This document shows, piece by piece, positions 35,504-53,980 of a DNA stretch of 64,000 bases (positions within the stretch are counted from its first letter, which is position 1; every line of letters starts with the position of its first letter). A program made the translations under genes and the position numbers. The notes under the pieces were generated by a model that worked only from the letters and a program-made list of their open reading frames with translations, was not told the DNA's origin and did not search any database. Location: assembly GCA_963800495.1 (NCBI GenBank), contig CAWDBB010000004.1, positions 194,741 through 258,740 of the forward strand, in the 5' to 3' direction. The stretch comes from Candidatus Bathyarchaeota archaeon. Its GTDB lineage: Archaea > Thermoproteota > Bathyarchaeia > Bathyarchaeales > Bathycorpusculaceae.

Positions 35504-36502
35504 TTATCTTCCTGACAGAATTCGGGTATATGGGTCTTCGGCAACTTGCGGAAAAGGCGTTTCTTTTCCTTTTCTAATTAGAATACGTTCTTTGTTTTCG
35601 GTAAATTCCCCCAAAAAGTAGACCGAGAGCCCGAGCTCATTTAATGCGGTTTTTACTTTCTTTTGCGCTTCAGGAGCTACTCCACCCAAAATCGTTCCTG
35701 TCGAAGACATCGCGAGTAACTGGTCATCTGTTAGTTTAAAATGTTCTTTTAGCACGCCTGCTTCCTTTGGCACAGGAATTTTTTCCCAATCTACACTAAA
35801 CCCAACCTTTGAAGCCTCAGCCAACTCGTTGAGCGCCGCCACAAACCCACCTTCAGTCGCATCATGCATCGCATGAACACCCTCAACATTGGCAAGGCGA
35901 ATAGCTTCTTTAACGCAGCTCTGCATGCAAACCAGTTTGGCGAGTTCTTCTTGTTTGTCAACGCCAAAGAGCTCCTGCGCCTTCTCCGAATAGGTTAGTG
36001 AGAAGTTGGTGATTGTTTCTAACCCCAAGGGCTTTGTGCACAAAATCAGGTCTCCCGACTTGGCGTTTCCCGGCGTTATCAACTTCGTGGGTTCTACTGT
36101 TCCGTAAACAGTGCAGACTCCAAGCATATCATTGATACTGCCGTACATTCCTGTGTGTCCACGAACGATGGCGATGCCTAATTCTTCGGCTGCGCTGCAG
36201 GTTTGATTCATGATTTTTTGGAATACTTCAGGTTTTGTTCCTATTGGTCCAAGGAGATTTATGGTACAGAATTCTGGTTTTGCTCCAAACAGGGCCACAT
36301 CTGAAGCAGGATAATGAATCAAGAGCCAACCGAACCAATCTTCAGGAACCCCAGTACAGGGATCAGTTGCAACAGCCACGTACTTGCCATGTAAAAGGTG
36401 AACTCCTGCATCGTACCCAACCATAGGCGGGACTATGACTCGGAAATCCTTCTTGATGCAGCTTAATAGTTTTTTAAGGTCTTCCGTCGAGAGTTTTCCC
36501 AT
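35504..36502 (-). CDS. AIR synthase (PurM/HypE/ThiL)-fold protein
   Basis: MGKL, G.DAGV, TDP, SDVA..GA.P, GHT, GDLI..TK, MHDATEGG, SSTGT. Confidence 0.88.
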   Translation of the reverse strand: MGKLSTEDLKKLLSCIKKDFRVIVPPMVGYDAGVHLLHGKYVAVATDPCTGVPEDWFGWLLIHYPASDVALFGAKPEFCTINLLGPIGTKPEVFQKIMNQTCSAAEELGIAIVRGHTGMYGSINDMLGVCTVYGTVEPTKLITPGNAKSGDLILCTKPLGLETITNFSLTYSEKAQELFGVDKQEELAKLVCMQSCVKEAIRLANVEGVHAMHDATEGGFVAALNELAEASKVGFSVDWEKIPVPKEAGVLKEHFKLTDDQLLAMSSTGTILGGVAPEAQKKVKTALNELGLSVYFLGEFTENKERILIRKGKETPFPQVAEDPYTRILSGR

Positions 36503-50612: not shown

Positions 50613-50878
50613 TTAAAATTCCTCAATATCTGATAAAATAAATAGTGAAAGGAAATATAAAAAGTGGATACCAACAACTTTTCCTTGCAAAAGGGTTTCA
50701 CAGAGCATTCAAAAAGCACGAGATAGGGTGTTTTCTTTCAAAAAAAGTTTTAGGACACATGTAAAGAAGAGCAGTTTCCAAAATTCTAAATTAAATAATT
50801 CTGTCTAACTTTGCATGCTTGAAAGGACAAAAGATAAGAGAATTCAAGCGTAATACAAACGCGGTACAGTGGCAACTA

Positions 50879-51809
50879 ATGGAAGTCGTAAATGTCCGTT
50901 TACCCGACAAATTAACTGCAGATATAGACAAACTGGCAAAGAAACACGATCTCACCCGATCAGAAGTCATGCGCCAAGCATTAACCATCTATCTGCACCT
51001 GACAGAAAACGTCGGCACCATGCTAAGACCAATAGTTTTTCAAGTGAAACCTGCCCAAATAACCTACACTCGCAGAGGCGACGTCTCAATCCTAAAAGTT
51101 CCCACAGGACACGCCATCGTGGCAGGCTCAACCTCAAGCGGCGCTGTTGGCCCCAAAAAAATGGACAAGGTTCAAGTGGAAGGGCACGTGCTGGGAAAAT
51201 TCTTGGCAAGAGTTGCCTTAATGGATGTGACTGCAACGGGCGCGTTTCCATTTCTTTTGTCCGTTACATTAGGCGTAGAAAAAGAACCCACTGGCAACGC
51301 AATAATTGAGGGAATTCGACGTGAAGCCAGAAGCATAGGTCTTGACCCAAATCAAGCTCTTATGGAGAACACCGAAGACAATTTTGAAACGGTACAAACT
51401 GGCGTTGGATTAACCGTGGTTGGCTTTGCAAATGATGAAGATCTTAGGCTTGGAAAAACAATGCCGGGCGACTTAATAGTAGCAATTGGCAAACCCAAAG
51501 TTGGAGACGAAGTATTAGCCGCAGAAACACGCGGAGAAATTGCGGACCTCAAAAACGTCACACAACTATCCCAGAGAAAATATGTACATGATATTGCACC
51601 AGTTGGGGGGTTTGGGATTGCAAGTGAAGCAAGAATGATGGCTTATGGCGTTGGGAGGCAACTAAAACTCTACGAGGTGCAAGGGGTTGGATTTGAGTAA
51701 GTCAGCGGGTCCAGCAACAGTTGTTCTTGCAACAATTGACAAAGAGAAGCTCGAAGATTTAACTTCGTTAATTCCTAAACCAATTAATGTTGTTGGAGAA
51801 ATACTCTAA
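50879..51809 (+). CDS. Ribbon-helix-helix domain fused to alpha-ribazole kinase (CblS)-like PurM-fold domain (apparent frameshift at ~51685)
   Basis: MEVVNVRLP......ID.LA......RSEVMRQAL, then SGAVGPK..D, ARVALM, EPTG..II.GI, TEDN..TVQTG, PKVG.EV; shifted frame gives DLSKSAGPAT...GEIL*. Confidence 0.75.
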
Positions 51810-51817
51810 ACAAAAAT

Positions 51818-52301
51818 TTATTTTTGAATGCTCTTTAGCATGTGCCCGTTACGGTCGATTTCTCCACTGCGAATTCGCGTAGTCGAGATAGGAGTGTTAT
51901 TTTCTGCCTCAACCATGTCCACTGCGACAATTTCGAGCGGTGGCAACCCAGCTTTTCCGCGTGTTGACATTAATAGCGCCTGCTGTTCGGGCAGTTTCTT
52001 TGCTCACGACTAATGCCTCTAAACCTCTGCCCTTAATTGTCAAGCCATACGAGTCGGTTAACGGTACAATTTCAGCTCTATCGGCTAAACCCATTTCTGT
52101 CAAATAAGTGGCTAATTCATCTCGGCGTTCAGCGTAAGAGGCAGTTATGTGGGGTTTGCCCATTTTCTTGACAAACTCATCAGAAGATAAGCCTATGACA
52201 ACTTTATCTCCGACTTCAAAAGCTCTGCTGAGTAATGCTTTGTGGCCTCTATGGAGTTCATCAAAAGTTCCTCCGACTGCAACTTTCTTGTATTTTTTCA
52301 T
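51818..52301 (-). CDS. coaD: Archaeal phosphopantetheine adenylyltransferase (apparent frameshift at ~51962)
   Basis: VAVGGTFD.LHRGH, GLSSD, LVVS.ET; shifted frame gives GLPPLEI...ISTTRIRSGEID. Confidence 0.9.
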
Positions 52302-53232
52302 TTTACCAGCCTAACGCCCTGAAAATCAATCTTGCTAACTATCACTTGTTTTGAGGGCAAGGTTTGCTTAAAAGCTTCTGCTACCAAGTCAGCGTTATTT
52401 TCATGTACGACGGCGTGAACTGCTTCTCCAATCATGTTTTGGGCTGCACCGACCGCACCAGCCTTCTTCGCCACGGCCACCAGCTCCCTTATGTTTTGGG
52501 TTGCGAAACCTGCTTTTTGCGAGAAATCCCAGCAGCAATCAAGAAAATTCTCCAAGCTGGGCTCGGCAAGGATAGCGTCTAGGGTTTTTTTGCCGTAGCG
52601 GTTTATTTCCTGCTTTTTCTTTGGCGAGGAAAGGACTGATTTTTTTGGGATGTCGGATTCTAAAAAAGCCCGCAACAACCATGTAATCAGGCGTTATGGG
52701 GATTCGGTCGATTTGGCAAATGCCTGGAGCGCCAGGTTCCACAACCAGAACGCAACCGCCACTAAAAGTCAAAGAGCTTACCGTGCCCAAACCTGTTAGG
52801 CATTGAATCTCGGCAACATGTGCGATTTTGCCAATCTGATTATACGTCAAGGGCAACCCTAAAGCGTCTCTAAGCGCTAATCCTGCGGTTAACGCTCCTC
52901 CTGCACTGGTGCCAAACCCGGTGCCAATGGGAACTTCAATTTGATGTTCGACTGTGATAGCATAGTTTGCGTTTGTTTTGGCCAGAAGGGTCGCTATTAC
53001 TTGCCTTGTGGTTTTTGCTTCTGTTAGCGGGTTTAGAATTAATGAAAACGTTAATGCTGTTTGTCTGTGCTTCTTCAGCGGTCACTGTTGTTGTGACGCC
53101 TTTTTCTAGCCCAAAACCTCCCCCTATGGCACCAACTTTCTCCAAATCTGTAATCGGTTTGCCGTCTTCGTTGTCGTGGATTTCAAAAAAACTCGAAATT
53201 GCTGCGGGCGCGAAAGCTTTAGCTTTTTTCAA
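52298..53232 (-). CDS. pok: Pantoate kinase (GHMP family; two apparent frameshifts at ~53030 and ~52665)
   Basis: AFAPA.ISSFF, GAIGGG, PIGTGFGTSAGGAL, AHVAEI...TGLGTV, GAPG, AQNMIGE. Confidence 0.85.
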
Positions 53233-53980
53233 CGTTTGTCACTTGTTTTTCCTTGCGTCTCAAGCTTGGGAATGCCCTATAGCATGCTTTGATGACAGGT
53301 GGTCCAACAAGCAAAATGAATGGGAGTTCTGTTGCGAATGTCCATACAAAGATTGGTAGAACGAAGGTTGCGGAAACTGGACCACTGACAAAAAACGATA
53401 GAAAGTAAGGACTAACTGCCCACACTGTAACTGATAGTAAACCCGCTCCTGCAGCTTGACCAATCACTGCGGCTATCGCGTAACTTCGCCATTCTTTCCA
53501 ACGAACGGCTGCCACTGCTATAATCGATAGACTAAGTATAACTGTTAATACAAAAGCGAGGAGGAACCATTCGGCTGACAAACCTGTAAGTAAGGATAAG
53601 TCTGGAAGTAATAGTATAGCTGGTACTAAGAGAGCAACGGCTGATACTATTATCCCAACCATGGCTTGTTTTAGGCTTATGTTTCTATGAGCTATGTATC
53701 CGATTAAAAAGAATAGTATAAAGTTTGGAGGAACTCCTGCTGAGAGACTTAAAAGAGGGATGCCATGGACAAACATGTCTCTAATGAAGATTCCAAGTGC
53801 TCCGCTAATTCCGCCAACCCATGGACCATACAATACGGCGAAAATTGCAGGTATAACAACCGCAGGCAAAAATCCTATACCTAAGAAAGAGAAATTGGCA
53901 GTTAAGATTCCAAATGCAGCATAAAGCGCTGCACAAATGCCAATAACAACGATATCTTGTGTCTTAAATCGGGTATTCAA
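53219..53980 (-). CDS. ECF-type S-component membrane protein
   Basis: AALYA, PAVVIPAIFAVLYGPWVGG..GA.G, multiple TMs; overlaps the pok start. Confidence 0.75.
   Translation of the reverse strand: MNTRFKTQDIVVIGICAALYAAFGILTANFSFLGIGFLPAVVIPAIFAVLYGPWVGGISGALGIFIRDMFVHGIPLLSLSAGVPPNFILFFLIGYIAHRNISLKQAMVGIIVSAVALLVPAILLLPDLSLLTGLSAEWFLLAFVLTVILSLSIIAVAAVRWKEWRSYAIAAVIGQAAGAGLLSVTVWAVSPYFLSFFVSGPVSATFVLPIFVWTFATELPFILLVGPPVIKACYRAFPSLRRKEKQVTNVEKS

Follow-up and report, generated by a model that had tools for sequence, protein, structure and literature searches.

We analysed a stretch of 64,000 nucleotides from the genome of a Candidatus Bathyarchaeota archaeon (assembly GCA_963800495.1, contig CAWDBB010000004.1), referred to here as the window. 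At positions 50879..51809 of its plus strand lies a gene that encodes a ribbon-helix-helix (RHH) DNA-binding domain fused to a domain resembling the alpha-ribazole kinase CblS. The gene is read here across one extra base, and its intact relatives encode proteins of 309 amino acids (aa). Based on its sequence and on structure predictions, we propose that the product is likely a dimeric, non-catalytic, one-component sensor-regulator of cobamide lower-ligand salvage in Bathyarchaeia. A first-pass annotation, made from the sequence alone, had already read the gene as a regulator sensing alpha-ribazole, a cobamide precursor, or a nucleotide. This reading is supported by the combination of an RHH domain with a CblS fold, by the loss of a conserved aspartate, and by a conserved operator; the ligand would be alpha-ribazole or its phosphate.

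Domain architecture and fold

The RHH domain covers aa 1-45 (50879..51013, plus strand) and is followed by a long linker helix that extends to about aa 53. Pfam RHH_1 matched aa 4-39 (E 3.3e-8, 33.6 bits, cut-off 20.5), CopG chains were the best natural Protein Data Bank (PDB) sequence matches, weak as they were, and the AlphaFold2 (AF2) model placed helices at residues 10-22 and 27-53. Together, these results confirm the N-terminus as RHH, as the first-pass annotation had it. Arg7 was invariant in the 8 fused forms aligned, and N-x-R at aa 5-7 recurred in most of the diverse fused forms.

The remainder of the protein is a PurM-fold, CblS-derived putative sensor domain (aa 61-309; 51059..51806, plus strand), which shares 38-45% identity with stand-alone archaeal CblS. 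Pfam AIRS N-terminal matched aa 71-155 just at its cut-off of 24 (24.2 bits, E 4.7e-5). We modelled the nearest database homolog, P0001, from a 40-sequence alignment, obtaining a mean pLDDT of 89, and of about 90 over the CblS-like part. Foldseek matched this model to SelD, PurL, ThiL, PurM, and HypE (probability 1.00, E 1e-15 to 1e-11). On the modelled fold, the C-terminal domain is a member of the PurM superfamily of ATP-using enzymes. The CblS-like kinase fold had been suggested from motifs, and it is borne out by these matches (PurM, ThiL, SelD) and by the closest relatives, which are stand-alone CblS proteins encoded beside cblT. The motifs themselves were also found: SGAVGPKKMD, RVALM, TEDNFETVQTG, and GSTSSG (aa 83-88, nt 51125-51142).

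The link to the PurM fold came from the fold search alone. A PDB sequence search with the family profile returned no PurM-fold chain at E up to 1, and NCBIfam had no model for this kinase domain, fused or unfused, giving just RHH-type matches below cut-off. Profile alignments (hhalign) to the ThiL and PurM of the same genome were weak (probability 0.5% and 1.2%), and that to ThiL is used below as a pointer only. Public annotations of the fused protein are varied, including "hypothetical", "selenophosphate synthetase-related", "CopG family", and, wrongly, "ribosomal protein S8".

The protein is also predicted to form a homodimer: its ipSAE was 0.83, and the best of 3 controls scored 0.00. Among proteins of solved structure, 20 of 30 pairs and 1 of 23 single chains reach the mark used for this call. 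Contacts agreed at 86% or more between runs, and the partner pLDDT was at least 86. Both the RHH domain (residues 1-42) and the sheet of the PurM-type N-domain, with its GSTSSG loop, contribute to the predicted interface, in which residues 1-10 of the two copies touch; this prediction may partly reflect memory, as solved RHH and PurM dimers are well represented. In the model, the N-terminal strands pair across the dimer, as they do in the RHH superfamily, and the RHH and PurM modes of dimerisation prove mutually compatible within one predicted dimer.

Distribution of the fused family

An N-terminal fusion of RHH and kinase-like domains is carried by more than 1100 homologs, nearly all of them 309-310 aa long, and by 80 genome loci, which argues that the fusion is no indel artefact, a possibility raised in the first-pass annotation. 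Among the 80 loci, 78 belong to metagenome-assembled genomes of Candidatus Bathyarchaeota/Bathyarchaeia from peat, fen, soil, and sediment, the exceptions being one labelled Crenarchaeota and one labelled Limnocylindrales. The complete genome of Ca. Bathyarchaeum tardum is among these 78. When 201 genomes of the phylum were sampled, two families belonging to a single order had the close fused form, and a third family had a fused form of 30% identity. A HMMER search over 1.8 billion representatives returned 575 family members, with about ten clusters fused.

A CblS paralog in the same genome

The source genome (G000) encodes an unfused paralog on another contig, C9. This protein of 258 aa is 38-41% identical to the fused domain and displays the motif ACDSAGG. 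The start of its gene overlaps the end of a 184-aa membrane gene of the ECF S-component type (Pfam ECF_trnsprt, E 1e-13). Searched with tblastn, the paralog matched putative cblS genes of Firmicutes (E 5e-19 to 5e-26), among which that of Listeria monocytogenes is the gene immediately 5' of cobU-cobS-cobC. It also matched the Lactiplantibacillus plantarum plasmid NZ_CP013155.2. A paper on L. plantarum MF1298 describes a cblT-cblS-cobS-cobC operon on plasmid pMF1298-5, and NZ_CP013155.2 is not confirmed as that plasmid. The nearest named ESM-Atlas clusters of the paralog were "alpha-ribazole kinase" and "CblS" (0.96). We identify the C9 membrane gene and the paralog as a putative cblT-cblS pair.

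Two published accounts (PMC6167548, PMC6461909) describe cblTS as encoding an alpha-ribazole transporter and kinase that provide an alternative to CobT for lower-ligand activation, with CblS having been characterised in the Firmicutes Listeria innocua and Geobacillus kaustophilus (Gray and Escalante-Semerena 2010, as cited there). The source genome has cobT and cobS as well. Its fused gene is not adjacent to cblT, which lies on contig C9 with cblS; in about 22 other genomes this pair is the divergent neighbour of the fused gene, not a member of its operon.

Loss of a conserved aspartate

Where their third strand ends, archaeal and Listeria CblS proteins share the motif (A/G/S)CD(S/I)(A/S)G, whose Asp is presumed to be a metal or ATP ligand. 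The fused protein of the window carries a degenerate version of the CblS motif (A/G/S)CDS(A/S)G, namely GSTSSG (51125..51142, plus strand), in which Ser84-Thr85 stand for Cys-Asp and alignments place Thr85 (51131-51133) at the conserved Asp. This absence of an acidic residue, remarked on in the first-pass annotation, is family-wide: the Asp is kept by 0 of about 200 RHH-fused proteins and by 211 of 213 unfused CblS. The residue pairs seen in fused forms are ST (187), SS, LT, YT, FT, CI, NT, CS, NS, TS, SF, and AS. A "CD" entry in this tally, P0194, was discarded because it is unfused: its N-terminal extension is spurious and contains no RHH domain. Eleven fused representatives at 50% identity, themselves 26-47% identical to P0001, all lack the Asp.

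In the weak alignment to the genome's own ThiL, the Thr85 position falls on the Asp of the "ktD" motif, and D68 and D116 correspond to the GDD and D-x4-GA-x-P motifs, respectively. In ThiL, PurM, and HypE, these Asp residues serve as ligands of Mg-ATP. A change of Lys to Asp or Glu (STEKN to NTE(D/E)N) was considered as a second catalytic loss and dropped, since the putative Listeria cblS reads STEEN.

Meanwhile, much of the pocket is retained. Residues D68, S86, G88, G91, D96, R111, E166, Q173, and T174 are invariant or nearly so across fused and unfused proteins, and the K(S/T)AGP block is kept. Because these residues are retained and the fused family keeps 66-96% identity across genera, the domain appears to be under selection. 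This pattern argues for a preserved pocket and purifying selection, and the domain is probably a binding module. As the conserved Asp is missing, the fused protein does not qualify as a CblS kinase.

A conserved operator at the regulator promoter

The upstream regions of the fused gene in eight genomes share an 18-bp element, of which GTATTACAATTGTAATAC is a perfect case. Its consensus is G-T-A-(T/C)-(T/A)-A-C-A-A-T-T-G-T-A-(G/A)-T-(A/G)-(C/T), in which each half, GTAnTAC, is a 7-bp palindrome, and the two centres are 11 bp apart. Two twofold-symmetric RHH dimers bound on the same side of the helix would require such spacing. A site scoring at least 9.5 with a position weight matrix (PWM) was located 5-17 nt upstream of the start codon in 57 of 77 loci, compared with 1 of 1540 shuffles; raising the threshold to 15 left 42 of the 77 loci and no shuffle. 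This tally took in the 77 usable loci of the 80. The operator is also conserved in lineages with a protein 47% and 35% identical to P0001 (L144, GTAATACAAATGTAAGAC; L146, GTAATACATATGTAATGC). A single, anecdotal case of covariation comes from the 30%-identical lineage, where the box has become GTAACAC...GTGTCAC and Thr takes the place of the ribbon residue Asn5.

The regulator promoter in the window follows the same layout. A TATA-like element, GATAAGAG (50833..50840, plus strand; assigned from sequence), lies 9 nt upstream of an operator-like site, GTAATACAAACGCGGTAC (50850..50867, no strand assigned), which ends 11 nt before the ATG and has a good left heptamer box and a degenerate right one. 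The relatives have (c)ATAAAAG as their TATA-like element, and the operator follows it after 10-11 nt. The site of the window occupies the orthologous position of their GTAyTAC-N4-GTArTry, and this position is its support. The general geometry on the regulator side is a TATA box, about 10 nt, the operator, about 11 nt, and the ATG.

Target genes of the putative regulon

The operator was also found before genes of lower-ligand metabolism. In about 19 of the 80 loci, the fused gene and cblT-cblS are divergent, and the 65-95 bp that separate their starts contain the operator; three more genomes of the family have a divergent cblT-cblS with sites scoring 19-20. At 5 loci, the divergent operon consists of an archaeal cobT (TIGR00303, 413 bits, cut-off 240) followed by a membrane gene of 191-204 aa. 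This last gene also occurs alone, with an operator 72-77 nt upstream, in G000, G077, and G155. Regulon reconstruction, which had been suggested in the first-pass annotation, thus revealed a conserved operator before the regulator gene, cblT-cblS, cobT, and the putative transporter gene.

The membrane gene (G000 C9:45285-45899, equal to L046 1501-2115; orthologs at L029 811-1428, L036 646-1236, and L104 1218-1793) encodes a polytopic protein of 191-205 aa. It has no Pfam or NCBIfam match, and its Atlas neighbours are QueT and ECF S-component clusters, so we regard it as a candidate transporter for a benzimidazole base or riboside. A class-wide search for the 204-aa protein found it in its own genus only, suggesting that the family is narrow or fast-evolving.

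A PWM scan of the whole source genome yielded one strong site, with a score of 20.6, located 43 nt before cblT (C9:132238-132255). A second site, scoring 12.1, lies 72 nt before the membrane gene (C9:45196-45213). The other sites of the scan were not above noise, with 17 observed at scores of at least 12 against about 50 in shuffles, and most of them lie inside open reading frames (ORFs). Both target promoters of this genome consist of the operator, gcgtgaaaa, and a TATA box of the TTTTAT type. The target-side geometry, which is also seen at the divergent loci, is the operator, about 10 nt, the TATA box, about 37 nt, and the target start.

Operator and regulator co-occur. The operator was absent from seven genomes with cblTS in which no fused gene was found (G056, G032, G040, G128, G266, G329, and G272), although these genomes are related to one another and do not count as independent. 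Moreover, no match to the cobalamin riboswitch RF00174 was found in the source genome, which is 86.6% complete. A scan of five relatives for the operator pattern with 3 mismatches gave mostly noise, with fewer matches than the reversed-pattern control, and only its low-mismatch, promoter-placed matches were used.

Some further observations concern neighbouring regulatory signals. The seven genomes with cblT-cblS in which no RHH-CblS-like gene was found carry a different palindrome, directly before the cblT start (L155, L156, L157, L010, L012, and L013), e.g., GGATGGATTAACCATCC or GGATAATCC. It may serve another regulator as an operator, or it may form an RNA hairpin that covers the ribosome-binding site. 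In a genome of the same genus (L047 5617-7678, minus strand), a perfect GTATTACATATGTAATAC palindrome (G190:C54:10720-10737) precedes a two-gene operon composed of a zinc-type alcohol/threonine-dehydrogenase-like gene and a TrpD-like phosphoribosyltransferase gene (TIGR01245, 251 bits). These two genes may be further regulon members that act in lower-ligand chemistry. Finally, a fused lineage 47% identical to P0001 (P0241) is divergent from a gene of the ADP-ribosylglycohydrolase family (L142 1-993, L143 105-1127), and the canonical two-box operator was not seen in the 64-bp spacer of that locus.

Proposed mechanism

We propose that a CblS paralog that lost the conserved Asp most likely phosphorylates nothing and still binds a CblS-type ligand. 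The dimer would pair both the RHH ribbon and the PurM-type sheet, and two of these dimers, spaced by one helical turn, would occupy the heptamer boxes GTAnTAC-N4-GTAnTAC. Because the regulator's own operator is flanked by the TATA box and the start codon and probably covers the transcription start, binding there would lead to autorepression. At the target promoters, the operator is located about 10 nt upstream of the TATA box, abutting or overlapping the TFB recognition element (BRE), so that the bound protein may either block TFB and TBP or recruit them; we lean slightly towards repression. The effector would be alpha-ribazole phosphate, acting as a feedback co-repressor, or alpha-ribazole, acting as an inducer, because alpha-ribazole phosphate is the product of CobT as well as of CblS, and a CblS-type enzyme is the ancestor of the sensor. 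In this way, the regulator would exert feedback control over the supply of the cobamide lower ligand through cblT-cblS, through cobT with the QueT-like transporter, or through the transporter alone. In the source genome, its predicted targets are on another contig, where the site of cblT-cblS is strong and that of the membrane gene weaker.

A broader and more specific hypothesis can be put forward tentatively, with slightly less than even confidence. According to it, a pseudo-kinase that arose by duplication of cblS would take the place of the B12 riboswitch in Bathyarchaeia and in some more distant fused lineages. It would sense alpha-ribazole phosphate and control all lower-ligand routes, including a new QueT-like transporter of the free base, via RHH binding to GTAnTAC-N4-GTAnTAC abutting the BRE and TATA box.

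Several points weigh against the proposed regulator. The operator of the window itself has a PWM score of just 10.1, against about 20 for good sites, and is not significant alone; the own sites of several close relatives are as weak or weaker, and this genus may have weakened or lost its autoregulation. The cobT-cobS cluster of the source genome lacks a site, its best score being 4.8. G077 lacks cblTS and G155 lacks cblT with the queries used; therefore, the regulon is not fixed. The placement of the operator upstream of the BRE and TATA box would fit activation as well as repression. A single acidic residue has been lost, D68, D96, D116, and E166 being kept, and with these other PurM-type acidic positions in place some residual or altered catalysis is conceivable. 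The genomes compared are relatives, hence the counts given above overstate independence. Lastly, were the frameshift in the window real, this copy would be a pseudogene.

Alternative explanations

An unlikely alternative, yet the strongest of those considered, keeps the same architecture and operator and assigns the protein another effector, i.e., the free benzimidazole base, a complete cobamide, or ATP/ADP. In its favour, cobT is among the targets, as is a QueT-like transporter by which the free base may be imported, a perfect site stands before the alcohol dehydrogenase-like and TrpD-like operon in one genome, the 47%-identical lineage is divergent from the ADP-ribosylglycohydrolase gene, and PurM-fold proteins bind ATP. 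Nevertheless, the ancestor enzyme of the sensor has alpha-ribazole and its phosphate as substrate and product, most pocket residues are kept, and alpha-ribazole phosphate would be, by our reasoning, the shared product of two regulated enzymes. We thus favour alpha-ribazole phosphate or alpha-ribazole as the probable effector.

Another alternative concerns the integrity of the gene. The regulator ORF begins with an ATG at 50879 and stops at 51698-51700 after 273 aa, and a second open frame, shifted by +1, extends from 51666 to a stop at 51807-51809. The span 50879-51809 measures 931 nt, which is not a multiple of three, and contains a frameshift. The first-pass annotation was right in placing a real gene over this span and overlooked the 1-nt frameshift near its 3' end; likewise, the KSAGPAT motif that it listed is present, but only in the +1 frame (51666-51809). 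The cause is a GGGG run at 51683..51686 (plus strand), one G more than the GGG of intact relatives, which shifts the frame into the false stop at 51698-51700. Nucleotide alignment shows GGG at this site in L044, a syntenic metagenomic contig that is about 93-95% identical to the DNA of the window. The homolog P0001, of 309 aa and 96% identity, has an unbroken frame (...YEVQGLDLSKSAGPAT...) and spans the site of the frameshift in a single frame (...LKLYEVQGLDLSKSAGPAT...). Programmed frameshifting at 51683-51686 was ruled out, as relatives are in frame at that site.

Compared with L044, the window has four further 1-nt insertions, in katG (45583), coaD (51968), and the pantoate kinase gene (52660 and 53027), genes that are unbroken in L044, where they encode 712, 160, and 311 aa, respectively. 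Because these neighbouring insertions also break genes that are intact in L044, we judge the frameshift in the regulator gene to be very probably an assembly error, and its real product to have 309 aa. The source assembly (2.37 Mb in 12 contigs, 86.6% estimated completeness) appears prone to indels, since a second copy of cobS elsewhere in it is broken as well, and calls of "pseudogene" or "split gene" in it should be treated with caution. Gene lengths off by 1-2 nt were also seen in several other assemblies that carry the regulator family.

In view of this, it is improbable, somewhat more so than a different effector, that the gene is a real pseudogene of the source organism, with a genuine frameshift and a degenerate operator reflecting decay of the system. 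The stop after codon 273, the tail in another frame, and the degenerate operator of the gene itself are what decay would produce. On the other hand, the four other insertions fall within about 8 kb and hit katG and the presumably needed coenzyme A genes coaD and pantoate kinase, the completeness is just 86.6% in 12 contigs, other assemblies show similar anomalies of plus or minus 1-2 nt, the coding sequence is otherwise 96% identical to an intact homolog, and the target site before cblT is of perfect grade.

The least probable alternative is a bifunctional kinase-regulator resembling RbkR, the archaeal precedent for joining an active kinase to a DNA-binding domain (PMC5397151); other acidic residues would then still allow phosphorylation of alpha-ribazole or a related riboside. 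This alternative would fit the retention of most family-conserved residues and the finding of the fused protein as the only CblS-like protein in G077 and, as far as searched, in G155 and G190, but none of the RHH-fused forms examined has the Asp that 211 of 213 unfused ones retain, the weak profile alignment sets it on a conserved ThiL Asp, and a canonical cblS adjoins the fused gene in many genomes, which would make a second kinase redundant.

Neighbouring genes

The regulator gene is adjoined by a convergent operon (window 51818-53980, minus strand) formed by an S-component-like membrane gene, the pantoate kinase gene, and coaD. In most of the 80 loci, coaD is the tail-to-tail neighbour of the regulator, with no operator and no evident regulatory link. 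A divergent pair of phosphoribosyltransferase and hydrolase genes upstream of the regulator was found in the closest relatives only, with no evidence of a link to the regulator. The window contains another gene of the AIR-synthase family, at about 36095-36412 (G000:C4:230835-231152, minus strand), which encodes 332 aa (AIRS E 1.7e-11) and falls outside the CblS clade.

Significance and comparison with known systems

The regulation of cobamide metabolism in archaea is poorly known, and the literature searched gave no protein regulator of lower-ligand supply. The RHH-CblS-like family offers a testable candidate, with a defined protein, an 18-bp operator, a small putative regulon (cblTS, cobT, and a new transporter candidate), and few possible effectors. 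It also presents what would be a clean case of a metabolic enzyme duplicated and turned into a sensor, as the loss of the Asp tracks the RHH fusion over hundreds of sequences. In addition, it suggests a likely role in the uptake of a lower-ligand base or riboside for an unannotated membrane family of 204 aa. Considering that Bathyarchaeia are abundant in peat and sediments, their salvage of B12 precursors bears on cobamide cross-feeding in these environments.

The fused protein resembles CblS in its PurM-type fold, in its sequence, which is clearly homologous by way of the archaeal CblS paralogs, in its G.G.K..D, R.AL(M/L)(E/D), TE.N...QTG, and K(S/T)AGP blocks, and, in the genomes where it neighbours cblT-cblS, in its genomic link to cblT. 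It differs from CblS in its N-terminal RHH domain, in the replacement of Cys-Asp by Ser-Thr or similar residues, and in being predicted to act on DNA and not as a catalyst. Published surveys of CblS cover bacteria, mostly Firmicutes (PMC6461909), whereas the fused protein is archaeal. Full-text literature searches for ribazole or CblS combined with archaea, RHH, regulator, and cobamide found no such protein described; it is probably an unpublished regulator that would do the job of bacterial B12 riboswitches.

That task is comparable to the one performed by the cobalamin riboswitch, which in bacteria commonly controls B12 uptake and salvage genes as an RNA that senses corrinoids. Here, by contrast, it would be carried out by a protein, and one that probably senses a lower-ligand riboside. 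The mode of DNA binding would be that of NikR and MetJ, in which an RHH dimer reads DNA at short symmetric operator boxes about one helical turn apart and a small-molecule or metal effector is sensed by a separate part of the protein. What differs is the effector domain, here a predicted PurM-fold pseudo-kinase in place of a nickel domain of the ACT-like type or a SAM site located on the RHH domain.

The closest parallel in design is found among the archaeal regulators built from an enzyme and a DNA-binding domain, of which RbkR and ThiR were named in the first-pass annotation as comparable. The precedent of RbkR is confirmed by the literature: in it, an archaeal riboflavin kinase is joined to a DNA-binding domain, and the protein is described as genuinely bifunctional (PMC5397151). 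Both proteins join a DNA-binding domain to the domain of a pathway enzyme, have operators before pathway and transporter genes, and belong to lineages without the corresponding bacterial riboswitch. In RbkR, the fused domain is the functional enzyme of the cell; in the bathyarchaeal protein, the Asp is lost and a separate, canonical CblS coexists, suggesting that the enzymatic role lies with the latter. The DNA-binding domain is here of the RHH type, the sensor is a degenerate paralog beside a canonical CblS, and the pathway is that of the cobamide lower ligand. What sets the protein apart among the enzyme-derived one-component vitamin regulators is the combination of RHH and PurM folds, the presence of a probable pseudo-enzyme beside an active paralog, and the pathway that it would control.

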